Shown: positions 556-35,280, counted from the first letter of the stretch. The stretch is 64,000 nt of DNA from an uncultured Eubacteriales bacterium (GCA_934503195.1 CAKSVM010000006.1:1927-65926), one strand, 5' to 3'. Program-made: numbers and translations. Notes: generated by a model not told the origin, from the letters alone.

Positions 556-563
556 ATTTGTGA

Positions 564-1703: not shown

Positions 1704-1760
1704 ATTTTTATCCTTTCAAAATATATTATCAGACAAATAATCATCTTGCCCAACAACACG

Positions 1761-1789: not shown

Positions 1790-1801
1790 TATATCTGCCG
1801 C

Positions 1802-1828
1802 AAAAAACGACGGTCTCCCGTCGTTTTT
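1802..1828. terminator. terminator hairpin (A6-CGACGG-TCTC-CCGTCG-T5), second copy of the 528-555 hairpin
   Basis: Same 12-bp stem as 528-555. Lies 17 nt downstream of the lipoprotein gene stop (1845, minus strand). Confidence 0.8.
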
Positions 1829-1844
1829 CGCCAATTGTCTTTCC

Positions 1845-5937: not shown

Positions 5938-7140
5938 ATGAAATATACCGCCGACGAAATCTTCGACTTCATCGAGCAGGAAGACGTGAAGTTCATAAGA
6001 CTCGCCTTCTGCGACCCCAAGGGAAGACAGAAAAACGTATCAATAATGCCCTCGGAATTAAAACGCGCTTTCGAGGACGGAATTTCCTTCGACGCCTCGG
6101 CGATTCACGGTTTCGCGGGCGAGGAGCGGAGCGATCTCATGCTCTTCCCCGTCCCCTCGACGCTGAACGTCCTTTCGTGGCGTCCGTCGCACGGCAAGGT
6201 CGTGCGGATGTTCTGCGACATCCGCTATCCTGACGGAAGCCCCTTTGAGTGCGACAGCAGATATATCCTGAAAAACGCTATCGACGCGGCCAAGAAAAAG
6301 GGAATCTCGGTCAGCTTCGGCTCGGAATTCGAGTTCTACCTCTTCAAGACCGACGAGGACGGATACCCGAACATGATCCCCTTCGACCGCGGCGGATACA
6401 TGGACGTCGCGCCCGAGGACAAGGGAGAGAATATCCGGCGCGAGATCTGCTTAACTCTCATCGATATGGGAATCCGCCCCGAGTCCTCTCACCATGAGGA
6501 GGGACCCGGACAGAACGAGATCGACTTCAGATTCAGCGACGCGATGACCGCCGCCGACAACGCCGTCAACTTCGTGACCGTTGTCAAGGCCGCCGCGATG
6601 CACAACGGACTCTACGCCGATTTTTCGCCGAAGCCGCTTGAGGGCGAGAGTGGAAACGGTATGCACGTCAACATTTCGCTGAAATCGACCGACGGCATTG
6701 ACCACACGCCCGAATTCATGGCCGGAATCATGGCGCACATCCGCGAGATGACGGCCTTCTTCAACAACCGTCCCGAATCTTATCTCAGACTCGGCGAGAT
6801 GAAGGCTCCGAAATATGTCACGTGGTCGCCCGAAAACCGCTCGCAGCTCATAAGAATCCCCGCCGCGAAGGGCGAATATCAGCGCGTCGAGCTTCGCTCG
6901 CCCGACCCCTGCGCAAACCCCTACATTGCCTACGCGATGCTGATTTACGCCGGACTTGACGGAATTGAGAAGAAGCTGAAATGTCCCGATCCGGTCAACC
7001 TCAATCTCTACACGGCCGACAGCTCGGTGACCGACAAGCTCGAAAAGCTACCGTCGTCGCTCGACGAGGCGATGGAACTCGCGGGAACCAGTGAGTTCAT
7101 AAAGTCGATCCTCCCCGAAAAACTCATAAAGTCGCTCTGA
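5938..7140 (+). CDS. glnA: glutamine synthetase (short type I-like, 400 aa)
   Basis: N-terminal beta-grasp (VKFIRLAFCDPKGRQKNV) and catalytic region (GSEFEFYLF, HHEEGPGQNEIDF, NGMHVNISL, RVELRSPD). Confidence 0.9.
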   Translation: MKYTADEIFDFIEQEDVKFIRLAFCDPKGRQKNVSIMPSELKRAFEDGISFDASAIHGFAGEERSDLMLFPVPSTLNVLSWRPSHGKVVRMFCDIRYPDGSPFECDSRYILKNAIDAAKKKGISVSFGSEFEFYLFKTDEDGYPNMIPFDRGGYMDVAPEDKGENIRREICLTLIDMGIRPESSHHEEGPGQNEIDFRFSDAMTAADNAVNFVTVVKAAAMHNGLYADFSPKPLEGESGNGMHVNISLKSTDGIDHTPEFMAGIMAHIREMTAFFNNRPESYLRLGEMKAPKYVTWSPENRSQLIRIPAAKGEYQRVELRSPDPCANPYIAYAMLIYAGLDGIEKKLKCPDPVNLNLYTADSSVTDKLEKLPSSLDEAMELAGTSEFIKSILPEKLIKSL

Positions 7141-7154
7141 AACGGTAAGAATCT

Positions 7155-7739
7155 ATGACGCCAACAAGACAAAAGCACCGTGTCCTGATCGTCAGCGCGA
7201 CCGATAAATTTTTCGATTTTGTGAAAGAAACTCTCCCGAACGACGAGTTTGAGCTTGAAGAGCCGCTGCATTCGGCCGGAGAGGCGAAGAGATTCTTAAT
7301 ATCGGCGCAGTCGGATATCCTGATAATCAACGCGCCGCTCCCCGATGATTTCGGCATCGAGCTTTCGACCGAGCTTGCCGACAGCACAATGGGAATCATG
7401 CTCTGCGTCAAGGGCGATATCTATGACCAGACGGCCTATAAAGTCGAGGACAGCGGAGTCCTGACGCTCGGAAAGCCGCTGTCGCGCCAGAGCTTCTACG
7501 CCGCGGTCAAGCTTCTCGCCGCGCTCAGTTCAAGACTCTCGCGCATGGAGATGAAGAACCGTTCGCTCCGTGAAAAGATGGAGGATATCCGTATGGTCAA
7601 CCGCGCGAAGTGGCTTCTCATCGAGAATCTCAACATGACCGAGAAGGACGCGCATCATTATATCGAAAAGCAGGCGATGGACACGAGATTCACCAGACGC
7701 GAGGTCGCCGAGAATATCGTCCGCACATACGATAAATAG
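7155..7739 (+). CDS. ANTAR-domain RNA-binding antiterminator with atypical (pseudo-)receiver domain
   Basis: C-terminal ANTAR helices (IRMVNRAKWLLIENLNMTEKDAHHYIEKQAMDTRFTRREVAENIV). In the N-terminal REC-like fold the acidic pocket is replaced (IVSATD; ILIINAPLPDD). Confidence 0.8.
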   Translation: MTPTRQKHRVLIVSATDKFFDFVKETLPNDEFELEEPLHSAGEAKRFLISAQSDILIINAPLPDDFGIELSTELADSTMGIMLCVKGDIYDQTAYKVEDSGVLTLGKPLSRQSFYAAVKLLAALSSRLSRMEMKNRSLREKMEDIRMVNRAKWLLIENLNMTEKDAHHYIEKQAMDTRFTRREVAENIVRTYDK

Positions 7740-12185: not shown

Positions 12186-12221
12186 AATAAAAATACGCGG
12201 TGGGAATTTCTCCCACTGCGT
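12186..12221 (-). terminator. terminator at the end of the BMC operon
   Basis: ACGCAGTGGGA..TCCCACCGCGT hairpin followed by a T-rich tract on the minus strand, 30 nt after the Fe-ADH stop. Confidence 0.7.
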
Positions 12222-12251
12222 ATGTGTCGTTTTATGTCAGATTTGTTACAC

Positions 12252-13397
12252 TCAGAGAAGCTTCGAGAGTATCTCCTCGACTCCCTCGGGCGTCATCTTA
12301 CGCGGATTTGTCGCCGTGCAGGCGTCCTTGAGAGCCGCCTCAATGATCGCGGGCTTCTGCGCCTCGTAAGCCTCGCGCGAAACTCCGGCGTCAGCGAGGG
12401 TGAGCGGGGTTCCGGTCATCCTGAGCATATAGGTCAGATGATCGCAGAGCGCGATTACGAGCGAGTTCGTGTCGAGCGGATTTTTTCCGCCCGAAAGACC
12501 GATCATCTTCGCGATATTCGCGAGTCTCAGCGAGGCTCTTGTCTCACACTTCGCGCCGAAGTTCGCCGAAAGATCGGCGTTGTAGCGCATGACGTGAGGC
12601 AGAAGCATCGCGTTCGCGCGTCCGTGCGGAATGTGGAACTTCGCGCCGAGCTGATGCGCGATTCCGTGATTCACTCCGAGCGAAACGGCGTTGAAGGCCA
12701 TTCCGGCAAGGCAGGACGCGGTGTGCATCTTGTCGCGCGCCTCGATATCGGCTCCGTTCGCGTAGGCTCTCGGAAGATACTCGAAAGCGAGTTTCAGTGC
12801 CTTCTCGGCGAGCGCGTCCGAATAATCGTTCGCCGCCGTAGAGATGTAAGCCTCCATCGCATGGGTGATGACGTCAAATCCGGTGTCGGCCGTGATTCTC
12901 GGCGGCGCGGAGACGACAAGCTCGGGATCGAGAATCGCAATATCGGGAAGAAGCTCGTCGTCAACGAGCGGATACTTGATTCCCTTCGCCTTGTCGGTGA
13001 TGACCGCGAAGCTTGTGACCTCAGATCCGGTTCCGCTGGTCGTCGGGATCGCGATGAGCTTTATCTGATCCTTGAAGCCCGAACGCTTCGCCATCAGAAT
13101 CGTCGCCTTCGCCGCGTCGATCGACGAGCCGCCGCCGAGCGCGACGACACAGTCGGCCTTCGCGTCAATAAGGAAAGCGAGTCCCGCGGCGATAAGCTCG
13201 ATCGGGGGATCGGGCTTGATCTCGCCGAAGATCTTCACCGAGTCAGCCGAGCCGAGCTTTGATTTTATATTCTCAGCCGCGCCCGAGCTTACCATGAAGG
13301 CGTCGGTGAAGATGACGACATTTCCCTTTTGCTCCGAGAGGACGTTCAACGCGCCCTCTCCGAAGCAGACATTTGTTTTGACCTTGAAGTTCTGCAT
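12252..13397 (-). CDS. iron-containing alcohol dehydrogenase (FucO/PduQ-like lactaldehyde/propanol dehydrogenase)
   Basis: 381 aa. GGGSSIDAAK, IPTTSGTGSEVT, LLPHVMRYNAD (shared with FucO as I recall it). Confidence 0.85.
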   Translation of the reverse strand: MQNFKVKTNVCFGEGALNVLSEQKGNVVIFTDAFMVSSGAAENIKSKLGSADSVKIFGEIKPDPPIELIAAGLAFLIDAKADCVVALGGGSSIDAAKATILMAKRSGFKDQIKLIAIPTTSGTGSEVTSFAVITDKAKGIKYPLVDDELLPDIAILDPELVVSAPPRITADTGFDVITHAMEAYISTAANDYSDALAEKALKLAFEYLPRAYANGADIEARDKMHTASCLAGMAFNAVSLGVNHGIAHQLGAKFHIPHGRANAMLLPHVMRYNADLSANFGAKCETRASLRLANIAKMIGLSGGKNPLDTNSLVIALCDHLTYMLRMTGTPLTLADAGVSREAYEAQKPAIIEAALKDACTATNPRKMTPEGVEEILSKLL

Positions 13398-13400
13398 AAC

Positions 13401-13949
13401 TTACAGAATAGAATCCCAGAGACGTTTGTCGGGATTCGGGATGACCGAGCTGTCGAGGAGCATTCCGTCCTCGGAAGCCACGGTCTCGGCGCGCTCGATT
13501 GCCGCGGTGACAGCCGCTACGTCTCCGGTGAGGAGGACATACGACTTGCCGCACATTCCGCGCGCGAGTCTCAGCTCGATGAGCGAGACGAGCGAGGTCT
13601 TAGCCGCCGCGTCAGCCGCCGTGATAGCCGCCGCCGCGTTGAAGGTCTCGATGACTCCGAGAGCCTTTACGTCGCCGAACTCGGCCGCGCCGTAGATCGC
13701 GGGAAAGATCGAGTCGTGCGGATTTCCAAGCACGAACGATCCGATTATTTTCTGTGAGTGAGCGGTCTTTGCCGCGTCGACCGAAGCCTTTACCGCGCTG
13801 AGATCGCCTGTGATGAGGACAAGATACTTTCCGGGGCAGACAGGCTGGCTTTCGAGAATCTCGACCTCTGCGGTCTTGAGCATAAGATCCGCGCACTGAA
13901 TTCCGGTCGAGATCGTCTGACACTCGACCATTCCGATTGCTTTACTCAT
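13401..13949 (-). CDS. pduT: tandem-BMC-domain shell protein (BMC-T, PduT-like)
   Basis: 182 aa with two BMC repeats. Cys38 in VCPGKY sits at the position of the PduT pore Fe-S ligand. Confidence 0.8.
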   Translation of the reverse strand: MSKAIGMVECQTISTGIQCADLMLKTAEVEILESQPVCPGKYLVLITGDLSAVKASVDAAKTAHSQKIIGSFVLGNPHDSIFPAIYGAAEFGDVKALGVIETFNAAAAITAADAAAKTSLVSLIELRLARGMCGKSYVLLTGDVAAVTAAIERAETVASEDGMLLDSSVIPNPDKRLWDSIL

Positions 13950-14075
13950 TTTATCAATATTTAGCTTTCGCCGCTGCGAAAGCTTCCTTTCGCTTGGTTA
14001 GTTTTCGGCGGTTCTCCGCAGGAGAATGACGGTCATCGGCCGTCAGGACGAAAACTATTATTCCTCTTCGCAGAT

Positions 14076-15443
14076 TTATGCGTGTATGATGACGTACTTC
14101 GGAGTGACCTCGGTGACCGTTCCGTCGATCGAGGCGTGAACCGGCATCGAGAGCTTGCCCTCAGCCGCGGTTCCGATAACGTCGCCGGTCTTTACCGCGT
14201 CGCCCGGCTTTACCGAAGCGGCCGCCGGAACGCCTATCGACTGGCTGAGCATAACCTTTACGGTTGCCGGCTTAATCTCGGTGTCGACGATCGGAGCCGG
14301 CTTGTCGTAGGACGAGAGTCCGAGTCTCGCGGTAAGCCGCTCGACCGGAACCATTCTGCCCGAACGATAGGGATTGACTTCGTCCATCTTGACGTTCGGA
14401 TCGGGCTTGATTCCGTTCGCGCGGAGTCCGGCCTTGACCTCGCCGATGAGCGTGCGCGGGGAGAGTCCCTGTCCGCAGGCGTACATCTCGCAGAGTCCGC
14501 AGGCCGAGCAGTACATGGTGTTGACGAAAGGCTTCAGATCCTTCGTGACACCCGAGGTTGCCGAGCGCATGAAAAGGTGCGGCTCGATCGGATGTCCGAG
14601 AAGATGACGCGAGCAAAGGTCAGTACACATACGGCACTGGCAGCAGGCCGCCATCGCGCGGTGCATATCGATTTTGATCTTCGCGGTCTTCTTCTGGATG
14701 ACGAAGCTGTTCTTCGGGAGTACGAGAACGGCGTTTGAGGTCTTCGTTACGACGTCATTTTCGGTGACGATACGTCCGGTCATGGGGCCACCGCCGACAA
14801 GGGCGTAGTCCTTTATCGTCGCGCCTCCGGCCATTTCGATGAGTTCTCCGTAGGTCATTCCGAGCGGAGCCTTGTAGGTGGAGGGGTTCTTAACCTCTCC
14901 GGCGATTGTTATGTACTTCGATGTGACCGGCTTCGACTCGTTCATCGCGCACCAGATGTTATAAACCGTCTCAACGTTGTAGACGATACATCCGACCGTG
15001 ATCGGAAGCGCGCCCGGACGGACAACTCTTCCGGTTGTCTCGTAGATGGTCACGACTTCGTCGCCCGCCGGGTAAACCTCGGGCAGGAAGCCGATCGACG
15101 CCTTCGGAAATTCGGGAAGCACCTTCTCGACCGCCTTGACCGCCTCCTTGTAAGCCGGCTTTACCGCGATAATAACGCGTCCGGCGTCAAGGGTGTCGGC
15201 GATTATGGAAAGCGTTCCGACGATCTCGCGCGCGTATCTTTCGAGAACCTGTCTGTGGAGCTTAAGAAGCGGCTCACATTCAGCACAGTTGAGGATGACC
15301 GTGTCAGCGGCGGCGTTGAGCTTGGCGTAGGACGGGAATCCCGCGCCTCCCGCGCCCGCGACACCGGAATTCCTCATGAGTTCCGATAATTCAGTTAACT
15401 GCATATTTTTATCTGCCCTGCCGGACGGAAATCCGTCCGGCAA
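14076..15443 (-). CDS. pduS: PduS/RnfC-like flavin/Fe-S oxidoreductase (SLBB + 2x[4Fe-4S] motifs)
   Basis: GVAGAGGAGFPSYAKL NADH-binding-type N-terminus; CCQCRMCTDLC and CSACGLCEMYAC clusters. The start is ambiguous: TTG 15443 or ATG 15404 (MQLTELSEL). Confidence 0.8.
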   Translation of the reverse strand: MPDGFPSGRADKNMQLTELSELMRNSGVAGAGGAGFPSYAKLNAAADTVILNCAECEPLLKLHRQVLERYAREIVGTLSIIADTLDAGRVIIAVKPAYKEAVKAVEKVLPEFPKASIGFLPEVYPAGDEVVTIYETTGRVVRPGALPITVGCIVYNVETVYNIWCAMNESKPVTSKYITIAGEVKNPSTYKAPLGMTYGELIEMAGGATIKDYALVGGGPMTGRIVTENDVVTKTSNAVLVLPKNSFVIQKKTAKIKIDMHRAMAACCQCRMCTDLCSRHLLGHPIEPHLFMRSATSGVTKDLKPFVNTMYCSACGLCEMYACGQGLSPRTLIGEVKAGLRANGIKPDPNVKMDEVNPYRSGRMVPVERLTARLGLSSYDKPAPIVDTEIKPATVKVMLSQSIGVPAAASVKPGDAVKTGDVIGTAAEGKLSMPVHASIDGTVTEVTPKYVIIHA

Positions 15444-15475
15444 GGCTCCTTTCTCTTGTTCAGATGTTCAGAGCT

Positions 15476-15748
15476 TCAGACTTCAAGTCCCTGCGCGTCG
15501 TCAACGATTCCGACGACCGCCGCGTCGCAGGGCGCGTCGGTGATCTGGCAGGCGAGTCTCGCCGCGCTTCCGGTCGAAACGAGTACGATGTCTCCGATGC
15601 CCGCGCCGATGTTATCGACCGCGACAAAACTCTCGCTGGGAATATTTCCGGATTTCCGAAGCGGCTCAATCACAAGGAACTTTGAGCCGATGAGCTTTTC
15701 GTCCTTGCGCGTCGCCACAACGCTTCCGGTGACTTTTCCGATTATCAT
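15476..15748 (-). CDS. eutN: BMC vertex pentamer protein (EutN/CcmL/PduN family)
   Basis: 90 aa. MIIGKVTGSVVATRKDEKL..FLVIEPL pattern. Confidence 0.9.
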   Translation of the reverse strand: MIIGKVTGSVVATRKDEKLIGSKFLVIEPLRKSGNIPSESFVAVDNIGAGIGDIVLVSTGSAARLACQITDAPCDAAVVGIVDDAQGLEV

Positions 15749-16357
15749 TTACTTGAGAATGGGAAGGATCTTCTCCACATCGTCGTGAGGACGCGGGATG
15801 ACATGAGTAGCGATGACCTCGCCAAGACGCTCAGCCGATGCCGCGCCGGCCTCAACCGCGCTCTTCACGGCTCCGACGTCGCCGCGTACCATGACCGATA
15901 CGAGTCCGGATCCGATCTTCTCGGTTCCGACGAGCTCGACGTTAGCCGCCTTGAGCATAGCGTCTGCCGCTTCGATTGCCGCAACGAGACCTTTGGTCTC
16001 GATCATTCCAAGTGCCTGAGTCATTTTTCTTACCTCCGAAATAATCTTTTCTTCGTGTTCTTCGCTTGTTTTCGCCGCCGGGATTTCCGGGGCGTTCTCC
16101 TTTGCCGGGCTGACCTCCGCGGTCTTTGTGTCGGCGGGAATACTTTCCGCCTTACTGTCTGACGCGGGAAGATCTTCCTTAAGCTCCGGCGCGGGAGATG
16201 CCGACGCGCTTTCACGCGCGGCTTCTGATGTTTTTTCCGGATCGACCTTTACGGTCTCCGGGATTTCCTTTTCAGGGGGCTTCGTTTCGGCCGCTTTTGA
16301 CGCGGTTTTGCGTCTGCGCGGCTTCGGAGCCGATTCGTTTGACTTATCCTCGGGCAT
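15749..16357 (-). CDS. BMC-H shell protein (PduA/EutM type) with 111-aa Pro/Glu/Lys/Ala/Ser-rich N-terminal extension
   Basis: The C-terminal 91 aa are a canonical BMC-H ([27 protein letters not shown]..). GGAGG RBS lies 8 nt before both ATG 16357 and internal ATG 16024. Confidence 0.75.
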
Positions 16358-16360
16358 ATT

Positions 16361-16666
16361 TCAGTCCTCCGATATGTCTATATTGTGATTCTTCGCGCTG
16401 AGAGCCAGAATCCGCTTTGTTTCCTCGTGCGGCGAGGCTATCACCGCCGACGCGACCGGCTTCATTATACAGCCGGACACGACCGCGTCAACCGCGGCTC
16501 TGACGTCCGAAACGTCGCCTGAGACGACTACCGTGACGAGTCTGCCGCCGAGCTTACGCTCAATCGTGACGAGAGTCACGTTCGCCGCCTTGCACATGAT
16601 GTCGAGCGCGTCGACAGCCGCGACGCTTCCCTCGACCTCGACAAGGCCGATTGCCTTAATTGCCAT
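16361..16666 (-). CDS. BMC-H shell protein
   Basis: MAIKAIGLVEVEGSVAAVDALDIMCKAANV.. BMC fold. I prefer ATG 16666 (AAAGG RBS). The ORF track extends to GTG 16699. Confidence 0.8.
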   Translation of the reverse strand: MAIKAIGLVEVEGSVAAVDALDIMCKAANVTLVTIERKLGGRLVTVVVSGDVSDVRAAVDAVVSGCIMKPVASAVIASPHEETKRILALSAKNHNIDISED

Positions 16667-16797
16667 TGTGATCAAGCCTTTCGCTTTGATGTCGGTCACT
16701 CCGGAAAAAGCCGGAATAATCGGAACTTCAGGGAAGGATATTCCGTGAAAACCACATTAAATAAGCCTTTTCCGTGACCGTTTAACGGGGATGCCGA

Positions 16798-17076
16798 TTA
16801 CTGGATGTGCGGAAGGATCTTCTCAACGTCGTTATGCGGACGCGGGATGACGTGGGTAGCGATGACCTCGCCGAGACGGCCGGCCGCCGCGTTTCCTGCC
16901 TCAACAGCCGCCTTGACAGCTCCGACGTCGCCGCGGACCATGACGGATACGAGTCCGGATCCGATCTTTTCGGTTCCGACGAGAGTTACCTCAGCTGCCT
17001 TTACCATTGCGTCAGCTGCTTCGATTGCCGCGGTGAGACCTCTGGTCTCGATCATTCCGAGTGCTTCCTGTGCCAT
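16798..17076 (-). CDS. BMC-H shell protein (PduA/EutM type)
   Basis: 92 aa. About 85 % identical by eye to the C-terminal domain of 15749-16357. Confidence 0.9.
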
Positions 17077-17103
17077 TTTAATTTTCCTCCAAAATATTTT
17101 TCT

Positions 17104-17445
17104 TTAAGCTTCTTTGATATACTCAGTCTTCTTCGGCTTATCGAAACCGCTTAAGGTGAGCATCTTTTCGGTCCCTTCCCCGGGACGCGGGATTATGTGC
17201 TTCGCGACGACTCCGGAAATTCCGTTCGCCGCTGTTTCGGCCGCCTCCATAGCTGCCTCGACCGCCGCCACGCTGCCGCGGAACTTGACCACGACGATGA
17301 GCGGAACCGGAAGAGTTTCGGGATGGAGAGGCTTGTTCTTGTCAAAATTCTCGACCGTCACGTCGGCCGCCTTACAGCCCGCGTCGCACGCGACAAACGC
17401 CGCTACGAGCCCGTAGACCTCGAGAATACCGACTGCCTGTGACAT
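17104..17445 (-). CDS. BMC-H shell protein with loop insertion
   Basis: 113 aa. MSQAVGILEVYGLVAAFVACDAGCKAADV.. with inserted DKNKPLHPETLPVPL. Confidence 0.75.
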   Translation of the reverse strand: MSQAVGILEVYGLVAAFVACDAGCKAADVTVENFDKNKPLHPETLPVPLIVVVKFRGSVAAVEAAMEAAETAANGISGVVAKHIIPRPGEGTEKMLTLSGFDKPKKTEYIKEA

Positions 17446-17457
17446 CGGCTACGCCCC

Positions 17458-18690
17458 TTACTTGTTGACAATCGCGATCTTGAGGCCTTCCTGACGGAGG
17501 TTGACCGCGAGAGCCTCGTTGATCTCGTCAAGCGGGAACTTGTGAGTGATGAGCTTCTTCATCGGAAGTCCGATTGCCTGCGAACGCTTTAAGAAATCAA
17601 ACGTCGTGGCGTAGTCACGGAGAGTGTAAACCCACGAGCCGACGATCGTGATCTCCTTCGAGCAGATGTCGAAGTGCGGGTTGATCGTGGCGTCGCCGCC
17701 GTTGATGAAGAATCCGAGCTCGCAGAGTCCGCCGCCGTTGCGGATGAACTTGTAGATGTTCGAGTGAGCGACGGGAGAACCGGTGCACTGGAACGCGAAA
17801 TCAGCGAGATAACCGCCGAAAGCGTCCTTCACGTGAGCGGTGAGATCCTCGATGCCCTTCGTGTCCTTGAAGTTGACAGTCGCGCCCGCGCCCATTTCCT
17901 TCGCGAAGGAAAGACGCTTTTCGTTTCCGTCGACAGCGACGATGTGCTCAATGCCCATCGTTCTGAGAACGGCGATGCAGATGAGTCCGATCGGTCCGCA
18001 GCCCTGAACGACAACGCGAGAGTTGAAGCGGAGGATTCCGGTTGTCTTCGCGCGCTCAACGGCGTGTACGAGGACGGCGCAGGGTTCGATCAGGATACGC
18101 GAATCGAGATCGAGATCCGATACGTTGAAGATTGTCGAGCCGCCGCGGACGAAGATGTAGTCCGAGAACCAGCCGTTCAGATGAATGTCGTCGTCCGGGA
18201 GAAGTCCGTAGACATCCGCGCCGCCGACGTTCTGCTTGTTGAGGTCGAACATCGTGATGTCGGGGTTGTCCTTGAAGATCATGCAGGTGACGACCTTGTC
18301 GCCGACGTGAAGCGGCTTTCCGGCCGAGTCGCGCGTGACATTCTTACCCATCTTGACGATCTCTCCGGTTCCCTCGTGACCGAGAGCGACCGGGATGAGT
18401 CCGAAGGGATCGCGTTTGAACTCGTGCGCGTCGGTCCCGCAGACTCCGCAGCCCTCGACCTTTACGAGGATATCGTTGTCGCCGAGCGGCGGGATCGGAT
18501 ATTCCTTGACCTCAAAACGCTCCTTCTCGACGAGAACGGCGACGTGCGCCTTGTCGGGGATTCCCGCGGTCTTAACCGCCGGAGCGGCCGTGACGCAGGC
18601 CGGGGACGGAGCCGTCTTCGGCTCGTCGTTAATCATTCCGGCGAGAACCTTTTTTACGATCTCTTCTATATTTTCTGCTTTGTAATCCAT
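17458..18690 (-). CDS. zinc-dependent medium-chain alcohol/polyol dehydrogenase with about 55-aa N-terminal extension (putative encapsulation peptide)
   Basis: GHEGTGEIVKMGKNV zinc-ADH signature, CGVCGTDAHE, GCGPIG Rossmann. N-terminal amphipathic ENIEEIVKKVLAGMI plus a Pro/Ala linker. Confidence 0.85.
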   Translation of the reverse strand: MDYKAENIEEIVKKVLAGMINDEPKTAPSPACVTAAPAVKTAGIPDKAHVAVLVEKERFEVKEYPIPPLGDNDILVKVEGCGVCGTDAHEFKRDPFGLIPVALGHEGTGEIVKMGKNVTRDSAGKPLHVGDKVVTCMIFKDNPDITMFDLNKQNVGGADVYGLLPDDDIHLNGWFSDYIFVRGGSTIFNVSDLDLDSRILIEPCAVLVHAVERAKTTGILRFNSRVVVQGCGPIGLICIAVLRTMGIEHIVAVDGNEKRLSFAKEMGAGATVNFKDTKGIEDLTAHVKDAFGGYLADFAFQCTGSPVAHSNIYKFIRNGGGLCELGFFINGGDATINPHFDICSKEITIVGSWVYTLRDYATTFDFLKRSQAIGLPMKKLITHKFPLDEINEALAVNLRQEGLKIAIVNK

Positions 18691-18713
18691 AGTTTACCTC
18701 ATTTAATAAACCG

Positions 18714-19223
18714 TTATTGTTCCGAAACGAGTCTTTCGAACACAGTCGCGCCGAACGCCGCGAGCGCGGTGTCCTCGGCCTCGGTTCCGCCCGAGACTCC
18801 GAGTCCGCCGACGACCTTACCGCCGACTTTGAGCGGCTCTCCACCGCCGAAGACGACGATACGCGAATCGTTCGTGAACTGAATTCCGTAGAGCGAACCG
18901 CCCGGCTGTGCCAGAGGCTTCAAGTCGATGGTCGACATTTTCAGCGACACGACCGTGAAGGCCTTCTGAAGCGCGACGTCGAAGCTCGCGATAAACGCGT
19001 CGTCCATGACCTCGCAGAGAATCGGTCTTCCCGAATTGTCCGCGACGACCACAACCGCCTTCACGCCGACTCTCTCAGCCTCAGCCTCAACCTCGGCCGC
19101 GAGTTTCTTAGCGAGCTGGAGCGTCACTGTTTTCACTCCGCGGAGAGCCGGATGAGCTTCGGATCCGCCCTTTACCTCGCCAACGACCTTCTCGATCAGA
19201 GCTTTCAGCTCATTTTCGTTCAT
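18714..19223 (-). CDS. GlcG/HbpS-like heme-binding protein (DUF336, PduO C-terminal-domain type) with N-terminal amphipathic helix
   Basis: 169 aa. ..VVVVADNSGRPIL..GGLGVSGGTEAEDTA is typical of DUF336. N-terminus is NELKALIEKVVGEV. Confidence 0.75.
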   Translation of the reverse strand: MNENELKALIEKVVGEVKGGSEAHPALRGVKTVTLQLAKKLAAEVEAEAERVGVKAVVVVADNSGRPILCEVMDDAFIASFDVALQKAFTVVSLKMSTIDLKPLAQPGGSLYGIQFTNDSRIVVFGGGEPLKVGGKVVGGLGVSGGTEAEDTALAAFGATVFERLVSEQ

Positions 19224-19232
19224 TTCCGGAAA

Positions 19233-20051
19233 TTACTTGCCCATCGCGGCGATGACGCGGCGGGTGATCTCAGCGACGAGATCCTCGTTCACCGACTTTG
19301 TGCCGTTCTCAGCCTTCTTGCAGTCGACACCCGAAAAATCGCAGTTCGGGCAGGGAGTCTTGCCAGCCGCGAGAACAGGACAGAGGTCAGCCGGATGCTT
19401 GCCCTTCATACCGAACTTGCGGCGGATCTCATAAAGTCTCTTTACCTGCTCCTCGTTCAGTTCCTTCGGACCGCCGAGCATCTTCGAAATGAACATCAGC
19501 TGTGCGTAGAACTCGACCGACTCCATCTTGTGGTAAGCGTTGAGAAGCGAATCCGAGTAAGCGAGCGCGCCGTGGTTCTCAAGAAGAACCGCGTCGTAAT
19601 GCTGGAGGTACTTCGCGACGTGATCCGGGATCTCCTCGGTCGAGGGTGTGCCGTACTCAGCGATCGGAACACATCCGAGCGCGATGACAGCCTCGGGCAT
19701 GATCGGAGCGGTCAGCGGGATTCCGGCGATAGCAAAGCCGGTGGCGTACATCGGGTGAGCATGCACGACCGAGACGACGTCGGGTCTTTCCTTATAGACG
19801 CGCATGTGCATCTTGATCTCGGAGGACGGGCGGAAGCCTTCATAAGCCTGAAGAACCTCGCCCTTGGAGTTGACCTTGCAGATATACTCAGGAGTCATGA
19901 AGCCCTTGGAAACTCCGGTCGGGGTGCAGAGGAACTCGTCCGGTCCGATCTTGACCGAGATGTTTCCGTCGTTCGAAGCGACCATTCCGCGGTCGTAAAT
20001 GCGTCTGCCGATCTCGCAGATCTGTTTTTTGATTTCGTATTCGGATGCCAT
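19233..20051 (-). CDS. class II aldolase (L-fuculose/rhamnulose-phosphate aldolase family) with C-terminal extension (putative encapsulation peptide)
   Basis: ASNDGNISVK, VVHAHPMYATGF metal-binding His pattern. About 60 extra C-terminal aa end in EDLVAEITRRVIAAMGK. Confidence 0.85.
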   Translation of the reverse strand: MASEYEIKKQICEIGRRIYDRGMVASNDGNISVKIGPDEFLCTPTGVSKGFMTPEYICKVNSKGEVLQAYEGFRPSSEIKMHMRVYKERPDVVSVVHAHPMYATGFAIAGIPLTAPIMPEAVIALGCVPIAEYGTPSTEEIPDHVAKYLQHYDAVLLENHGALAYSDSLLNAYHKMESVEFYAQLMFISKMLGGPKELNEEQVKRLYEIRRKFGMKGKHPADLCPVLAAGKTPCPNCDFSGVDCKKAENGTKSVNEDLVAEITRRVIAAMGK

Positions 20052-20116
20052 TGTTTTGTCTCCTTAATAATAATTATTTCGTGAATTTATCGAAAAACCC
20101 GATTCCGGGTGTTTCT

Positions 20117-20548
20117 TCAGTTATGAAGGTAATCTAAAACCTCTTTGATTCCCCGACCTGTCACCGAGTCGACCCGGAATATCGGATCGCAGCCCGAGTT
20201 TCTGAGCCAGAGCTCGGCCATATCGGGATTCGCGTCCGGCTCGTCGCATTTTGTGACGATGCCGATCACCGGGCGGCAGGCCGTCGCGGCAATCGCCGGG
20301 GAAAAGAGTGAGTAAGGCTCGGTCGCTGACGCCAGAAGTCCGATCACGTCGGACTCGTAGGCGTAAACCGCAAGCGCGCCTCCGAGATGCCTTGTCTGGA
20401 TATACTCACCCGGCGTGTCGACAACGATTCCGGATGGGTCGTAGCCGACCGCCTGAGTCTTGGCGTAGTGTATGTTTTCGCCGCGCAGAGCCTGCGTCAG
20501 CGTGGTCTTTCCGGCCTCGGAGCGGCCTATCAGGATAATGCGTTTCAT
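20117..20548 (-). CDS. pduV: EutP/PduV family small GTPase
   Basis: 143 aa. P-loop GRSEAGKTTL, KTQAV, VDTPGEY. Confidence 0.85.
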   Translation of the reverse strand: MKRIILIGRSEAGKTTLTQALRGENIHYAKTQAVGYDPSGIVVDTPGEYIQTRHLGGALAVYAYESDVIGLLASATEPYSLFSPAIAATACRPVIGIVTKCDEPDANPDMAELWLRNSGCDPIFRVDSVTGRGIKEVLDYLHN

Positions 20549-20611
20549 ACTTCTATCGTTTGGTAAATTCCGGCGTCAAGCCGGAATTTTCTGACTTGAA
20601 GAACCTGTTCT

Positions 20612-21001
20612 TCAAGTCTTTGTTAACTCGCACACCGAGAACCCGAGCTTCTCCTCGCAGTACTCAAGCGTCGCGCGGAAGGCCGCCTCGACGTCCGAGA
20701 TAGTCCCGGTGATGAGAAGCGTTCCCGAGAAGCGGTCGACGAAGCCGATCTGCGCGCCCGACTGCTTTGTAGCGATGTCGGCGGCGATTATCGCCGTCTC
20801 GGCCGGGGAAAGCGTGATCATTCCGATCGCCGAGTGCGACCAGTCGACATTCGGATCAAGTCCGAGCTTTTGGTAGAGAATCTTGTCGGGGCTCGCGATT
20901 ATGTGCGCCAGGGTTATCTGCTTTCCGGGGACAAGCTCCTGAATTATCCTGACCTTGCCGTCGGTTCCGATGTTGTCGGGTATTGAAAATGCTGGTTTCA
21001 T
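20612..21001 (-). CDS. pduU: circularly permuted BMC shell protein (PduU/EutS type)
   Basis: 129 aa. RIIQELVPGKQITLAHIIASP..FVDRFSGTLLITG pattern. Confidence 0.8.
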   Translation of the reverse strand: MKPAFSIPDNIGTDGKVRIIQELVPGKQITLAHIIASPDKILYQKLGLDPNVDWSHSAIGMITLSPAETAIIAADIATKQSGAQIGFVDRFSGTLLITGTISDVEAAFRATLEYCEEKLGFSVCELTKT

Positions 21002-21003
21002 TT

Positions 21004-21792
21004 TTATCCTCCGATATGGCAGATAATTCCGGTCGCCGCGCAGACACTTTTGAGATATTCCATCTTCGCCTTCTCGGGCGGCTTCACGTCGCCCATCGGA
21101 TAATCGCGCCCAAGCCCGATGTATTTGTCATAGCCGAGCCGGTGGTACGGCAAGATGTGCATCTCGCCGACTCCGAGCGTCGAATACGCGAATTCCGCGA
21201 TATCGTGAAGCTCCTTCGCCGTGTCGTTGAAGCCCGGGATCACCGGGACGCGGATGATGAGCTTTTTCGCTTTTTTCGCGAGAAGCTTCGCGTTTTCGAG
21301 GATTCTCCCGTTCGGCATCGTCGTGTATTCGCGGTGCTTTTCGGAATCCATGTGCTTTATGTCCATTAAGAACGTGTCGACAAGCGGGATGAAACGCCCG
21401 ACGATCTCGCTCTCAACGGCGCAGGTCGTCTCGATCGCGGTGTTCAGTCCGCGATCCTTCGCGGCTTCGAGAAGCGCGCAGGCGAAGTCAGGCTGACCCA
21501 TGCACTCGCCGCCCGAAAGAGTCAGCCCACCGCCCGAACGGCGGTAATAAGGCATATCCTTCATGACGATTTCAAGCACGTCGCCGACCGTCGTGTCGTA
21601 TCCGATCGTCTTCTTTGCCCCGTTCTGGAGCATCGTTTCGATCTCATAGCTCTGCGACTCGGGATTGCAGCACCACCGGCAGCGCAAATAGCAGCCTTTG
21701 AGGAAGACTATCGTCCGGATGCCGGGTCCGTCGTGAACCGAGAATTTCTGGATATCGAAAATCCTGCCCTTTACATTCAGAATATCGTCCAT
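21004..21792 (-). CDS. glycyl-radical enzyme activating protein (radical SAM)
   Basis: 262 aa. CYLRCRWCCNP (CxxxCxxC). Start overlaps the GRE stop (TGATG). Confidence 0.9.
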   Translation of the reverse strand: MDDILNVKGRIFDIQKFSVHDGPGIRTIVFLKGCYLRCRWCCNPESQSYEIETMLQNGAKKTIGYDTTVGDVLEIVMKDMPYYRRSGGGLTLSGGECMGQPDFACALLEAAKDRGLNTAIETTCAVESEIVGRFIPLVDTFLMDIKHMDSEKHREYTTMPNGRILENAKLLAKKAKKLIIRVPVIPGFNDTAKELHDIAEFAYSTLGVGEMHILPYHRLGYDKYIGLGRDYPMGDVKPPEKAKMEYLKSVCAATGIICHIGG

Positions 21793-24341
21793 CAGAATCC
21801 CGTCTGCTCGGTGCGGTTGATTATGTCGTCCTGAAGCGACTTCGAGAGCGTAACGAAGAGCGCGGAATATCCGGCGACGCGGACGACAAGCGACTTGTAT
21901 TTCTCGGGATGCGCCTGAGCGTCGCGGAGCGTCTCGCGGCTGACGACATTGAACTGCACGTGGCTTCCTTTCTGGTCGAAGTAGCCGCGGATCAGCGCGA
22001 CGAAGCTTTCAAGTCCGGCCGTTCCCTCGAGCGCGGAAGGATGAAACTTCATGTTGAAGAGCGTTCCGTTCGAGGCGATTCCGTGGTCGAGCTTTGAGAC
22101 CGAGTTGCAGGAGGACGTCGGACCGTGCGTGTCCTTTCCGGCCGACGGCGAAACGCCGTCAGCGATCGGTGTGAAGGCGAGTCTTCCGTCGGGTGTCGCT
22201 CCGGTCTGCGCGCCGAGCGGAACGTTCGCCGAGACCGGGTAAAGTCCGGCCTGGAACTGTCCGCCGCGCGGATTTCTGTATTTTTCAAGCGGGCGCGTGT
22301 AGGTGTACGCGACGTCGCGGGCGAAGAGATCGACTTCCTCGATATCGTTTCCGTATTTCGGGAGCGCGTCGATCATCGACTTTATCTTTCTGTAGCAGTT
22401 CCTCTGGAAATCGCCGGAATTTCCCTGAGTCTTCACTTTTCTGAAGATCTCGCGGATAACGCCTTCGCTTATCAGCTTTCCCTCGGCGGCGAGCTTCTTC
22501 GCCTCGAAGGCGGTCAGCTTTTCGGCCATCTTGTCCGGGATGTCCTCGCCGAAGTTGTGACCGAGAGCCTCCTTGAGTTCGGCCATCGTGATAAGCTTCT
22601 TGTCGAAGACGAGCGTTTTCACCGCCCAGAGCGAGTCGGTCATGTTCGCGATTCCGAAGCCCTGCGGTCCGGTGAAGTTGTAGACCGCGCCGCCGCACTG
22701 AGTCGGCTTTCCGCGTCCAATGCAGTCAAAGATCATCGACGACTCGAACGGGAGCGGGCAGCGTTCCATATGCGCTCTGTCAATCGCGTTGTCGGCGTTG
22801 ACAAGGAGCTTTATCATGTAATTCGTCTGAGCCTTGAAGGCGTCGTAGAACTCGTCGAAGGTTTTCATTCTCGTGACGTCCGGCGTTTCTACTCCGATAA
22901 GCTCTCCGGTCGGATCCGAGCCGCTCTCGTCGCGTCCGGAGTTCATCGTGAGTTCGAGCGGGCGGCACATATTGAAGAACGCGGCGTCGTGCCAGCCCTC
23001 GGTCTTGCCGGCCTTCTGAGGCTCGACGCAGCCGATTATGTTGTAATCGCGCGCGTCCTCGACCGAAAGTCCGCGGCTTATCAGCGCGGGGATTATGACC
23101 TCGTCGTTGTAGTAGGCGGGAAGTCCGATTCCGGTGCGCGTCAGCTCGGCGGCCTTGATGAGAAAATCGTGCGGCGAGCCGTTCCAGACCCTGACCGAGA
23201 AGGACGGCTGGGGAAGCATCACGTGGCGGGTCGCCTGAATGCACATGAACGAGAGGTCGTTTGTCGCGTCGAGCCCCCCGGGCGTCTGACCGCCCGCGAT
23301 GAGATTCTGGAAGAGCGAATATCCGGCAAATCCCTCGGCCGATCCGGCGTCGCGGCACTTGTTGAGATCGTTTAATTTAACCCAGATGCAGTCCATCAGC
23401 TCCTGAGCGAACTCGGGCGAGATCTTCCCCGCTTCAAGGTCGGCCTTGTAGTAGGGGTACATATACTGGTCAAAGCGTCCGGGCGAGATCGAGTGTCCCG
23501 ACGACTCGACCTGAAGGAGCATCTGAATGAACCAGAACGACTGGCAGGCCTCGTAGAAGGATTCCGCGCCGTTTTCGGGAACCTTGCCGCAGATCCGCGA
23601 AATCTTCGTAAGCTCGGCCTTGCGCTTGTAGTCATCGCACCCGGCCGCCATTTCCGCGGCCAGAGCCGAATAACGCTTGGCGTAGGTGATCGCCGCCTCG
23701 CAGCTTTCAATCACGGCCTCAAGGAATTTCGTGCGGGTCGCGTAATCGGCGTCGCCGAAGTCGCGCTTTTCAAGCTCGGCCTTCGCCTCGGCGATGATTC
23801 CCTTGTAGCCGATTTTCAGCACTTTCGCGTAATCGACCGTGACGTGGCCGACGCCGTTGTAGAAATAGTTGCCCGGCGTGAACATGTTGTGCTCCATCGC
23901 TTTGAGCGTTTCGGGAGCCATGTATGAGGTCGCAAGCTCGGAGGTTGTCTTTCCGCCCCAGTACTTGTAGACCTCGTGGAGGGTCTTTTTCGTCTCGTCC
24001 GAGATGTAGAATGGATCGGCGATTCTGGTCGCGACCGTGTCGAACTCGTCCTCAAGCCAGGTGAACGAGAACTCCGGGAAAACCTGACAGCCGCGCGGGG
24101 ATTTTGTCGCCGAGCCGACGATAAGCTCGTTTTCGCGGATAGTTATCGGAATGTTCTCGCAGATGTGTCTGAACGCGTGCGCGCGGCGCGAGATTATCGG
24201 TTCGCCCTCGGTCGCCTTGTAGGATTCGGTGAGAAGAACGGCGCGGTCGGCCTCAATCTCGGGAAGATGATCGTAGAGCGCGTCTATGAGCTTTGGTATG
24301 CGCTCACTGCGCGTGATGTTTATGATATGATACTTAGCCAT
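21792..24341 (-). CDS. glycyl radical enzyme, diol/choline-lyase clade (probable B12-independent 1,2-propanediol dehydratase)
   Basis: 849 aa. Glycyl loop RVAGYSALF; thiyl loop IIGCVEPQKAGKTEGWHDAAFFN. Substrate is inferred from the aldolase context only. Confidence 0.8.
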   Translation of the reverse strand: MAKYHIINITRSERIPKLIDALYDHLPEIEADRAVLLTESYKATEGEPIISRRAHAFRHICENIPITIRENELIVGSATKSPRGCQVFPEFSFTWLEDEFDTVATRIADPFYISDETKKTLHEVYKYWGGKTTSELATSYMAPETLKAMEHNMFTPGNYFYNGVGHVTVDYAKVLKIGYKGIIAEAKAELEKRDFGDADYATRTKFLEAVIESCEAAITYAKRYSALAAEMAAGCDDYKRKAELTKISRICGKVPENGAESFYEACQSFWFIQMLLQVESSGHSISPGRFDQYMYPYYKADLEAGKISPEFAQELMDCIWVKLNDLNKCRDAGSAEGFAGYSLFQNLIAGGQTPGGLDATNDLSFMCIQATRHVMLPQPSFSVRVWNGSPHDFLIKAAELTRTGIGLPAYYNDEVIIPALISRGLSVEDARDYNIIGCVEPQKAGKTEGWHDAAFFNMCRPLELTMNSGRDESGSDPTGELIGVETPDVTRMKTFDEFYDAFKAQTNYMIKLLVNADNAIDRAHMERCPLPFESSMIFDCIGRGKPTQCGGAVYNFTGPQGFGIANMTDSLWAVKTLVFDKKLITMAELKEALGHNFGEDIPDKMAEKLTAFEAKKLAAEGKLISEGVIREIFRKVKTQGNSGDFQRNCYRKIKSMIDALPKYGNDIEEVDLFARDVAYTYTRPLEKYRNPRGGQFQAGLYPVSANVPLGAQTGATPDGRLAFTPIADGVSPSAGKDTHGPTSSCNSVSKLDHGIASNGTLFNMKFHPSALEGTAGLESFVALIRGYFDQKGSHVQFNVVSRETLRDAQAHPEKYKSLVVRVAGYSALFVTLSKSLQDDIINRTEQTGF

Positions 24342-24348
24342 AGAAACT

Positions 24349-25113
24349 TTATCCTTTGCTTTTCAGGAGAAATCTTACATATTCCGCCACGTTCGCGGTG
24401 TGTCTTGTCGAGAGTGAGAAGATCCCGTGCTTTGAGCCGTAGATCGTCACCGGTATTCCGGCAAACTCAAGGAGCGTCCGGTCGTTTTCCGAGTCGCCGA
24501 ACGCGGCGGCCTCAGAGGCGTCGATCCCGAGTTCGCCAAGCAGGAATTTCGCCGCCGCGGCCTTGTCAACGCCGTCTCGGACAAGCTCGGTTATCGTCTC
24601 GCCACGGTAAACGGCGCGAAGTCCGGGGATATCGGCGTGATATCCGCGCTTTGTGAAGAGGATGATCTTATAAACTCTGCCGGGAAGCTCCGAAATGCCG
24701 TTTATCCCGCGATACTCGTCCGGAATCCGGCGGGACTCGGATTCGTGTAATTCTCTGCTTTCAGAGAGAAGGCAGGAATTCTCGCCGGCGCAGAACTCGG
24801 TGCCGACAATGTCGGACGTCTTCGCGAGATCCGCGACCGCTTTTACCTCGTTCTCCCCGATCGGGAAATCGGCGAGCTTTACGCCGCCGGCCGATATGTA
24901 CGCCCCATCGAGCGCGAAGAAGACGAGCTTTCCGGAATTTTTCGCGAAGATCTTACGAAGCGAGGGAAGCGTTCTGCCGCTCGCGATGACGAAGGGAATT
25001 CCCACCGCCGCGCACTCGGAAACCGCGAGGTCGAGGTCGCGCGGATATAAAATCTCACCGCGCCTTAACAGTGTGCCGTCAGCGTCACTTATTACTATCC
25101 GGATAAGGCTCAC
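24349..25113 (-). CDS. Cof-type HAD-IIB phosphatase
   Basis: IVISDADGTLL (DxD motif), SGR, GDSENDRTLLE. The stop lies only 7 nt before the GRE start, so it is the first gene of the operon. Start is GTG. Confidence 0.75.
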   Translation of the reverse strand: MSLIRIVISDADGTLLRRGEILYPRDLDLAVSECAAVGIPFVIASGRTLPSLRKIFAKNSGKLVFFALDGAYISAGGVKLADFPIGENEVKAVADLAKTSDIVGTEFCAGENSCLLSESRELHESESRRIPDEYRGINGISELPGRVYKIILFTKRGYHADIPGLRAVYRGETITELVRDGVDKAAAAKFLLGELGIDASEAAAFGDSENDRTLLEFAGIPVTIYGSKHGIFSLSTRHTANVAEYVRFLLKSKG

Positions 25114-25140
25114 TCCCCCACTTTGATATCTCTATATAAT

Positions 25141-25169
25141 ATAATACAACATTTTTCGAAAAAAGTCAA
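25141..25169 (-). promoter_or_regulatory. promoter of the HAD/GRE/BMC operon
   Basis: Minus strand TTGACT - 17 nt - TATTAT, about 25 nt upstream of the HAD start. Confidence 0.55.
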
Positions 25170-25323
25170 GGATAGTTTATGAATTTTCGGATTTCCGCCC
25201 ACAGAATTTCGAAATGACGCCCTCATTTGTTTTGTCATATTTGTCAAAATAATGTTCATGTTCTCGCTTTTTCACATTTTTCCTCCAAACTGACTCGGTT
25301 TCAGCCGATTTTTTCCAAAAAAG

Positions 25324-25355
25324 AAAATGTGAATTTGTAAACAAATTCACATTTT
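25324..25355 (-). terminator. terminator of ABC exporter operon (perfect 15-bp AT-rich palindrome)
   Basis: AAAATGTGAATTTGT-AA-ACAAATTCACATTTT, 10 nt after the stop at 25365, followed by CTTTTTT on the minus strand. Confidence 0.7.
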
Positions 25356-31802: not shown

Positions 31803-32321
31803 TCAGTTTCGTTTGCCATCGCGGACAAAGAACCGCTTCAGCCCTATCGCCGCTCTCAGAATCACCGGACGCGCGGCGTATGTCGGCGTCCAGAAAAAGC
31901 GGTAGAGCCGGAGAGGAAGTCCCTCCGCGTCGTGAATTTTCCCGCCGGAGTCAATCTTCCTCACCACCGCGACAACCCTTTCGCGGCTTATGATCTCGCA
32001 CCAGTTCTGCGCGTCGCCGTTCATTAAAAGCCGGCCGTCCGGAAGACATTTTCTCACTCTGTGGAGAACGAACGCGCCGTTCTCCCGCCTGAAAAGCAGT
32101 ATGTCGCCGCGCTTTGCCCTGTCGCCGCTGATCCCTTCGAGGATCACGCCAGACCGCCCCGGATGAAGGAGCGGAAGCATACTTGTCCCGGTGACCTTTA
32201 GCGGAAGCGTCCCGCCGCCGTCAAAAAGCCGCTCAAAATCGTCCCCGTCGCGCAGAGCGTCGATTATTACAGTGTCGCGCCCCGAACTGTTCTTAGCCGC
32301 GGCCGGAATCCCGCCGCTCAC
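31803..32321 (-). CDS. S24/S26-family (signal-peptidase/LexA-like) serine peptidase domain protein
   Basis: VTGTSMLPLL..RGDILLF..LHRV pattern. I place the start at a GTG forming a GTGA overlap with the upstream kinase stop. The longer ORF-track form would overlap that gene by 150 nt. Confidence 0.6.
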   Translation of the reverse strand: MSGGIPAAAKNSSGRDTVIIDALRDGDDFERLFDGGGTLPLKVTGTSMLPLLHPGRSGVILEGISGDRAKRGDILLFRRENGAFVLHRVRKCLPDGRLLMNGDAQNWCEIISRERVVAVVRKIDSGGKIHDAEGLPLRLYRFFWTPTYAARPVILRAAIGLKRFFVRDGKRN

Positions 32322-35268: not shown

Positions 35269-35280
35269 CTCACACCCCCG

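Follow-up and report, generated by a model that had tools for sequence, protein, structure and literature searches.

We have analysed a 64,000-nucleotide stretch of DNA from an uncultured Eubacteriales bacterium (CAKSVM010000006.1:1927-65926), called here the window, which carries an operon for a glycyl radical enzyme-associated microcompartment (GRM) of the fucose/rhamnose type known as GRM5. The operon has lost the two enzymes that complete the core of such organelles, the acylating aldehyde dehydrogenase (AldDH) and the PduL-type phosphotransacylase. According to the metabolosome paradigm, a toxic aldehyde is made inside a protein shell, AldDH oxidises it, PduL recycles coenzyme A (CoA) and an alcohol dehydrogenase (ADH) recycles NAD+, so that the shell encloses private cofactor pools. 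We tentatively propose, at somewhat under an even chance, that the operon is a net-reductive derivative of GRM5 making 1-propanol only, and that its lineage deleted AldDH, PduL and the DeoR regulator. We read it as a GRM5 derivative because its gene set and encapsulation peptides match those of GRM5, and as reductive-only because AldDH and PduL are found in no frame of the 64 kb and the deletions are clean and conserved.

The absence of the core was addressed in two ways: by Pfam searches on all other long open reading frames (ORFs) of the window, and by six-frame tblastn using AldDH and PduL queries from related GRM5 loci. No Aldedh, PTAC or Pta domain was found among all the other long ORFs, and tblastn against the 64-kb window returned nothing better than E = 0.05. 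Both approaches thus agree with the first-pass annotation, which had reported the two enzymes missing from the operon and from the 64 kb around it. Consequently, the type II acylating AldDH (pfam00171) with N-terminal encapsulation peptide and the PduL-type phosphotransacylase (pfam06130), two features of GRM5, are not found in the window locus. In 21 canonical loci AldDH occupies the junction between DUF336 and the zinc-dependent ADH (Zn-ADH), which measures 23 nt in the window, and PduL the junction between the fourth hexameric shell gene (BMC-H 4) and EutN, which measures 0 nt. Two of the four canonical core activities (signature enzyme, AldDH, phosphotransacylase and ADH) are therefore absent from the locus and from the window. 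Neither chance nor an assembly artefact explains the absence: the contig carrying the operon was recovered in two independent ENA metagenome assemblies, and other species share its architecture.

The operon occupies the minus strand from 25113 down to 12252. ORF and Pfam analysis bore out all 16 co-directional genes previously described, at unchanged coordinates, in the order HAD phosphatase, glycyl radical enzyme (GRE), activase, PduU, PduV/EutP, aldolase, DUF336, Zn-ADH, four BMC-H, EutN, PduS, PduT and iron-dependent ADH (Fe-ADH). Neighbouring genes are separated by 0-126 nt and all 16 ORFs are intact. Unless otherwise stated, the domain assignments given below come from Pfam.

The signature enzyme is an 849-aa GRE (21792-24341) with PFL-like and Gly_radical domains (pfam02901 and pfam01228). 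It matches the 1,2-propanediol dehydratase of Roseburia inulinivorans (PDB 5I2A) end to end, with 1247 bits over residues 2-847. A segment of about 50 residues (approximately 598-650) is shared with 5I2A and missing from the B12-independent glycerol dehydratase; the insertion of GRM3, GRM4 and GRM5 GREs, of about 60 aa in the GRM5 definition, is described as an internal encapsulation peptide. The alignment shows the motifs GVGHVTV (His166), GCVEP (Cys438/Glu440), WHD, YPVSANVPLGAQ (Val696) and RVAGYSALF, the second and last of which had been noticed at first reading and are confirmed. The YPVSANVPLGAQ stretch is identical between the window GRE and the Roseburia enzyme, whereas glycerol dehydratase has YPSSINVYFGSL instead. 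We take His166, Cys438/Glu440 and Val696 to play the functional roles that structural work has assigned to them. Judged by its sequence, the window GRE is an ordinary 1,2-propanediol dehydratase of the GRM5 clade, internal insertion included.

The GRE-activating enzyme (262 aa, 21004-21792) is joined to the GRE by a TGATG overlap of stop and start codons, an earlier observation that the sequence confirms. Its architecture is PflA-like, without a ferredoxin insert: only Radical_SAM and Fer4_12 are matched, PflA models align in one stretch, and the insert-bearing TIGR02494 model aligns in two, skipping the insert. Among GRMs, an activase without the ferredoxin-like insertion is unique to GRM5.

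Three proteins carry terminal encapsulation peptides, all of which align with their counterparts in canonical loci. The class II aldolase of the fuculose/rhamnulose-phosphate type (pfam00596; 272 aa, 19233-20051) has its Aldolase_II domain at residues 10-186 of 272 and ends in a C-terminal helix, EDLVAEITRRVIAAMGK, as GRM5 aldolases do. The DUF336/HbpS-like protein (169 aa, 18714-19223) begins with ELKALIEKVVGEV. The Zn-ADH (410 aa, 17458-18690) begins with NIEEIVKKVLAGM and a Pro/Ala linker, both conserved across locus types, and its domains (pfam00107/pfam08240) start at residue 70. This is the protein that the GRM5 literature assigns as lactaldehyde reductase with an N-terminal encapsulation peptide. 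It falls in the polyol/sorbitol/threonine dehydrogenase branch, its best solved relatives being an uncharacterised zinc ADH (1VJ0), sorbitol dehydrogenase and xylitol dehydrogenase. In the Sutter 2021 catalogue, the encapsulation-peptide hidden Markov models for the GRM5 Zn-ADH and DUF336 proteins derive from 197 and 77 sequences, respectively.

The ancillary genes listed for GRM5 in the literature are a DeoR regulator, "a hydrolase" and a DUF336 protein. The listed hydrolase is the gene that opens the window operon, a Cof-type HAD-IIB phosphatase (254 aa, 24349-25113). It is probably cytosolic, since it shows no terminal extension. The first-pass annotation had regarded the two ADHs and the DUF336 protein as occupying the space of the missing core. 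That idea has to be abandoned: HAD, DUF336 and Zn-ADH are published parts of GRM5 that stand alongside AldDH and PduL in the 21 canonical loci, and are ordinary components rather than stand-ins. Nor does the Fe-ADH fill that space: an ortholog also trails a canonical locus holding both core enzymes.

The shell is likewise of the GRM5 kind. It comprises a PduU/EutS-type protein (129 aa, 20612-21001), presumably of the permuted type; four BMC-H proteins, namely BMC-H 1 (113 aa, 17104-17445), the PduA/EutM-like BMC-H 2 (92 aa, 16798-17076), BMC-H 3 (16361-16699; its longest ORF gives 112 aa and the gene call at ENA 101 aa) and BMC-H 4 (202 aa, 15749-16357, BMC domain at residues 115-190); and one EutN/CcmL pentamer (BMC-P; 90 aa, 15476-15748). 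A small GTPase, PduV/EutP (143 aa, 20117-20548), lies between PduU and the aldolase. The literature finds PduS and PduT in 57 of 57 GRM5 loci, and here too both are present with intact domains. PduS (14076-15443) is a flavoprotein and a homologue of RnfC, in which an NADH/FMN domain, SLBB and a 2x[4Fe-4S] domain are recognised; its true start likely gives 433 aa, with the gene ending at 15377. PduT (182 aa, 13401-13949) is a tandem-BMC shell protein whose alignment shows that the pore cysteine (PVC38PGKY), described as a ligand of a [4Fe-4S] cluster, has been kept.

BMC-H 4 bears a low-complexity N-terminal extension of about 110 aa, rich in Lys, Pro, Glu and Ala, which is about 50 aa long in two of the core-less relatives described below (L003 and L005). 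We considered it as a hallmark of core loss or as a remnant of PduL, and rejected both ideas: extended BMC-H 4 proteins (126-174 aa as longest ORF) occur in many canonical loci and in types A-C (L032, L044, L049, L055, L061 and others), and the extension gave no Pfam PTAC or tblastn match.

To place the operon among its relatives, GREs were searched in one genome per species, which yielded 80 loci, annotated locally and labelled L003, L004 and so on; the best GRE match had 78% identity. Four architectures were recognised. Type A, the canonical one (21 loci, Lachnospiraceae and others), reads GRE-activase-PduU-PduV-aldolase-DUF336-AldDH-ZnADH-4×BMC-H-PduL-EutN-PduS-PduT. In type B (10 loci plus 6 that end at the flank, several from metagenome-assembled genomes (MAGs) labelled Acutalibacteraceae), PduT is followed by DeoR, acetate kinase and an AldDH with encapsulation peptide. 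In type C (11 loci), AldDH, BMC-H and PduL are placed after PduT. AldDH is thus found without exception in the 21 type A loci and, at a different place, in the loci typed as B or C. Type D, to which the window, L003, L005 and the truncated L004 belong, reads HAD-GRE-...-PduT-FeADH and continues into unrelated genes, with AldDH and PduL in no frame. Type D is the canonical GRM5 operon minus AldDH, PduL and DeoR.

The core-less layout ending in PduT-FeADH was found in six lineages (window, L003, L005/L088, L084, L092 and L093), and L004 is a probable seventh. Six-frame searches detected neither AldDH nor PduL within 10 kb of L003, L005/L088, L084, L092 or L093, and the downstream neighbours all differ. 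Core-less loci are carried by the assemblies GCA_965320665.1, GCA_965317505.1, GCA_045580005.1, JAGBZV01 (RGIG9597), JAFYUZ01 (RGIG7446) and CAKSDR01. In a neighbour-joining tree of the GREs (without bootstrap), locus types group largely by clade. A single clade unites the window with L003, L004 and L005, all four represented by full-length GREs, and the partial GREs of L084, L088, L092 and L093 have their best match in it. Outside this clade, L094/L095 end in an Fe-ADH of 63% identity and keep DeoR, and six-frame searches of them gave no AldDH or PTAC; this DeoR-retaining form is carried by the assembly GCA_965317375.1. Because their partial GRE is closest to type A GREs, sequence comparison suggests a second, independent loss of the core.

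Six further loci were entertained as core-less and rejected, being treated instead as type-B-like loci cut by the 10-kb flank. L015 and L031 show DeoR and then acetate kinase after PduT, DeoR appears where the stored flank of L010 runs out, and L009, L024 and L035 break off shortly after PduT, where the only ORFs look antisense. L046, which does have an AldDH match, displays the order DeoR-AckA-AldDH. Downstream of PduT, the type B loci L006, L015, L031 and L046 are arranged differently from type C, a striking plasticity in where the core module lies.

The core-less operon has been kept functional by selection long after the loss, because synonymous divergence (dS) is saturated and the ratio of nonsynonymous to synonymous rates (dN/dS) is low. 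Comparing the window with three other type D loci, dS between core-less loci was above about 1 or not calculable. For most operon genes dN was 0.04-0.35; DUF336 exceeded this range in the more distant pairs, and HAD exceeded it by far. Where calculable, dN/dS was about 0.03-0.16 for the core operon genes, Fe-ADH included. HAD is only 27-43% identical among core-less relatives, far below every other gene of the operon, reflecting either fast evolution or replacement by non-orthologous copies. It lies upstream of the GRE in all core-less relatives whose upstream side is visible (L003, L004 and L005).

The Fe-ADH that closes the operon (381 aa, 12252-13397) has no terminal extension. Its best NCBIfam match is the ADH half of AdhE (372 bits), and against the FucO lactaldehyde reductase model TIGR02638 it scores 271 bits, under the 523-bit equivalog cut-off; FucO is a solved-structure relative (188 bits). 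Homology searches return graded relatives from 100% down to 60% identity. Those of L084, L093, L088 and L092 (81%, 81%, 67% and 67%) close further type D loci, the downstream neighbours being SmpB plus a GH106 rhamnosidase, FeoB, MntP and a HAD hydrolase. The 60% relative, from a common gut species, trails a fully canonical locus with AldDH and phosphotransacylase, after PduT and DeoR. Finally, in L090/L091 (10001-11140) an Fe-ADH of 63% identity directly follows RhaA, in a cluster with an AraC regulator and a sugar ABC transporter and without shell genes. As this relative adjoins RhaA, the family is suggested to be the lactaldehyde reductase of a rhamnose pathway. The Fe-ADH is an ancestral tail gene tied to rhamnose metabolism.

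No sugar-catabolic genes were found beside the core-less loci L003 and L005. In L084, a GH106 alpha-L-rhamnosidase (12674-15082) lies 1.5 kb downstream of the core-less locus, which is consistent with rhamnose as the physiological substrate. In L005, from a buffalo MAG, a second, unrelated GRE (55-2220, minus strand; 30% identical) was noticed 8 kb upstream of the GRM locus; it adjoins a regulator of the AraC type and has no shell genes nearby.

From this gene content we hypothesize the following route. L-fuculose-1-phosphate or L-rhamnulose-1-phosphate would enter the shell, where the encapsulated aldolase would cleave it into dihydroxyacetone phosphate (DHAP) and L-lactaldehyde. The encapsulated Zn-ADH, possibly with the Fe-ADH, would reduce lactaldehyde to 1,2-propanediol, which the GRE would dehydrate to propanal. 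Without AldDH, the only fate left to propanal would be reduction to 1-propanol, catalysed by either the Zn-ADH or the Fe-ADH. In the canonical model, lactaldehyde reduction spends one NADH, the oxidation of propanal by AldDH returns it, and PduL recycles CoA. Here, the organelle would be a pure electron sink consuming 2 NADH per deoxyhexose, and the cell would draw its ATP from DHAP in the cytosol. Assuming standard pathways, the whole cell would convert rhamnose into acetate, CO2 and 1-propanol, a balance of atoms and redox that would close without H2. Such an H2-free balance is a plausible selective reason in H2-rich guts.

All the redox steps that remain in this scheme are reductive, and so the lumen would need an outside source of NADH. 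Either NAD(H) would pass through the shell, or electrons would travel via the Fe-S pore of PduT to the RnfC-like PduS. What PduS does in B12-independent microcompartments is a question that the literature itself leaves open. The stronger proposal, that a clade of gut Clostridia runs an AldDH-free, CoA-free and purely reductive organelle, which turns lactaldehyde from deoxyhexoses into 1-propanol alone and whose luminal NADH is regenerated by electron import from PduT to PduS, we consider doubtful. If true, it would be the first case in which electron transfer across the shell by PduS/PduT is obligatory rather than accessory.

Several observations weigh against a reductive-only organelle. A lumen in which NADH is consumed and never regenerated contradicts the model of metabolosomes with private cofactor pools. 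The potential of a Pdu PduT cluster, measured at +99 mV, argues against NAD+ reduction through PduT. The Fe-ADH shows no visible encapsulation peptide, and so its role as luminal propanal reductase is only proposed, while 1-propanol as sole product is deduced from the gene set. Moreover, the DNA inspected amounts to 64 kb of this genome and 10 kb on either side of the related loci, and AldDH and PduL may lie beyond.

This last point leads to the explanation that survives best beside our own, which we regard as quite possible, if not the favoured one: a split locus. The operon would be an ordinary GRM5 whose AldDH and PduL, with encapsulation peptides and perhaps accompanied by AckA and DeoR, sit at a satellite site and are co-regulated in trans, the products being propionate and propanol. 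The first-pass annotation had listed this option as well. Among the nearest clades the AldDH module is mobile: type A has it inside the operon, type C behind PduT and type B behind DeoR-AckA. The window also lacks genes for the sugar isomerase, kinase and transporter, and so the fucose/rhamnose pathway is already split across the genome. A split locus would also preserve the accepted logic of internal NAD+ and CoA recycling. There is a precedent in the Sutter 2021 catalogue, which includes a satellite-encoded AldDH for the microcompartment type ACI. Against these points, neither AldDH nor PduL was found in the 12 kb downstream or the 39 kb upstream of the operon in the window, nor in the 10 kb downstream of the locus in six other genomes, each with different flanks; that is, no satellite was seen within the window or the 10-kb flanks of the relatives. 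In addition, AldDH, PduL and DeoR are jointly missing in a whole clade, and the core is missing again in a separate lineage.

It had also been suggested that NAD(H) is recycled inside the shell by a pair of ADHs, the Zn-ADH oxidising a polyol or polyol phosphate and the Fe-ADH reducing lactaldehyde or propanal. The dehydrogenase branch into which the Zn-ADH falls and the presence of two ADHs, with PduS as the only other NAD enzyme, speak for it. Nevertheless, we find it improbable. Since canonical loci pair this same peptide-bearing Zn-ADH with an NADH-producing AldDH, it should be reductive there, in line with its published assignment as lactaldehyde reductase; the locus encodes no enzyme producing or consuming a polyol phosphate; and the Fe-ADH carries no encapsulation peptide. 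The broader idea of an electron-sink compartment survives in our proposal, and only its polyol-oxidising Zn-ADH is disfavoured.

A GRE substrate other than 1,2-propanediol, which would make the acyl-CoA branch unnecessary, is very unlikely. A published review stresses that GRE function is hard to predict from sequence, and the HAD phosphatase and the DUF336 protein of the locus are left unexplained. However, the match to the Roseburia dehydratase covers the full length, with the Cys/Glu loop, His166 and the YPVSANVPLGAQ motif with Val696 all shared and glycerol dehydratase differing at the latter. The window GRE also groups with canonical GRM5 GREs, and HAD and DUF336 are ordinary accessories of these loci. 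Finally, that the operon is a decaying remnant with no working organelle is scarcely credible: two enzymes deemed essential are missing and HAD evolves fast, but the 16 ORFs are intact, the encapsulation peptides are conserved, and six or more lineages share the layout with saturated dS and dN/dS of about 0.03-0.16.

The comparison with known systems confirms where the operon belongs and where it departs, and the earlier recognition of a GRM5-like fucose/rhamnose locus holds in gene set, gene order and encapsulation peptides. Like the GRM5 loci of Roseburia inulinivorans and Clostridium phytofermentans, as described in Axen 2014, Ferlez 2019 and Sutter 2021, it has the GRE insertion, the insert-free activase and the peptide-bearing aldolase, Zn-ADH and DUF336 protein. 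It also shares with them the HAD hydrolase, PduU, PduV, four BMC-H plus one BMC-P and adjacent PduS and PduT genes, in the canonical order save for the missing genes. Unlike them, it has no AldDH at the DUF336/Zn-ADH junction, no PduL at the BMC-H 4/EutN junction and no DeoR, and its Fe-ADH directly follows PduT inside the operon. Sutter 2021 defines microcompartment types without AldDH (BUF) and with an incomplete core (MIC), and under its naming rule one without AldDH is a BUF. The window locus resembles both in departing from the paradigm of signature enzyme, AldDH, phosphotransacylase and ADH; it differs in that its signature enzyme and substrate pathway are recognisable and its shell and cargo unmistakably derive from GRM5.

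With the reductive branch of Pdu microcompartments (PduQ) it would share the reduction of propanal to 1-propanol, by the Fe-ADH or another ADH, and it has the PduS-PduT Fe-S pair. In Pdu, however, this branch only regenerates NAD+ for PduP; the window has no PduP, reduction is the whole of the proposed pathway, and dehydration is B12-independent. With the non-compartmentalised rhamnose cluster of RhaA and a FucO/RhaO-type Fe-ADH it shares the 63%-identical Fe-ADH, but only the window has shell genes, and its Fe-ADH scores below the lactaldehyde-reductase cut-off. We found no description of a GRM5 lacking AldDH and phosphotransacylase in the accessible parts of Axen 2014, Ferlez 2019, Ravcheev 2019, Asija 2021 and Sutter 2021, supplements included.

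The single promoter placed before the operon by the first-pass annotation corresponds to a promoter-like site on the minus strand, TTGACT-17-TATTAT (25169-25141). It is a consensus match, agreeing at 10 of 12 positions, and precedes the first gene by about 30 nt. At the other end, a terminator-like hairpin with a 13-bp stem, predicted for both strands by the same kind of consensus, lies at 12193-12223, 29 nt past the stop codon of the Fe-ADH. A second predicted hairpin (25355-25324) parts the operon from upstream ABC-transporter genes. The decamer AAAATGTGAA occurs twice within 25268-25355, upstream of the promoter, one copy being inside the terminator hairpin of the ABC genes. It may be a candidate operator, of interest given that the operon is missing its DeoR regulator gene.

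Elsewhere in the window, a run on the minus strand (39026-43854) encodes a lactate racemase of the LarA type, a 490-aa oxidase linked to FAD, and EtfA/EtfB, and looks like an electron-bifurcating lactate-utilisation module; a divergently transcribed histidine kinase and response regulator lie next to it (43919-46521). A host among the gut Clostridia would fit three further features: the C-terminal part of a choloylglycine (bile salt) hydrolase, cut by the edge of the window (93-524), a glutamine synthetase followed by an ANTAR regulator (5938-7739), and a capsule locus with two tandem Wzz/ParA-like genes of the tyrosine-kinase type, CpsB and a polysaccharide biosynthesis protein (32318-38728). 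No significant Pfam match was obtained for two large ORFs that adjoin each other (747 and 658 aa; 49284-53528, minus strand) or for one of 396 aa (57536-58726).

If the core is encoded in trans, the finding shrinks to a note on locus plasticity; its interest would grow considerably if whole genomes confirm that no core exists in trans. If a selected GRM5 lineage does work without AldDH and PduL, sequestering the aldehyde can by itself be reason enough to build an organelle. In that case reducing equivalents have to cross the shell, and the PduS and PduT proteins of B12-independent microcompartments gain a testable function. The gene pduP serves as a marker for the propanediol route to propionate in gut metagenomes. 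Should our proposal be true, carriers of the core-less operon would use fucose or rhamnose, yield propanol rather than propionate and release no H2, which would change how those metagenomes are read.

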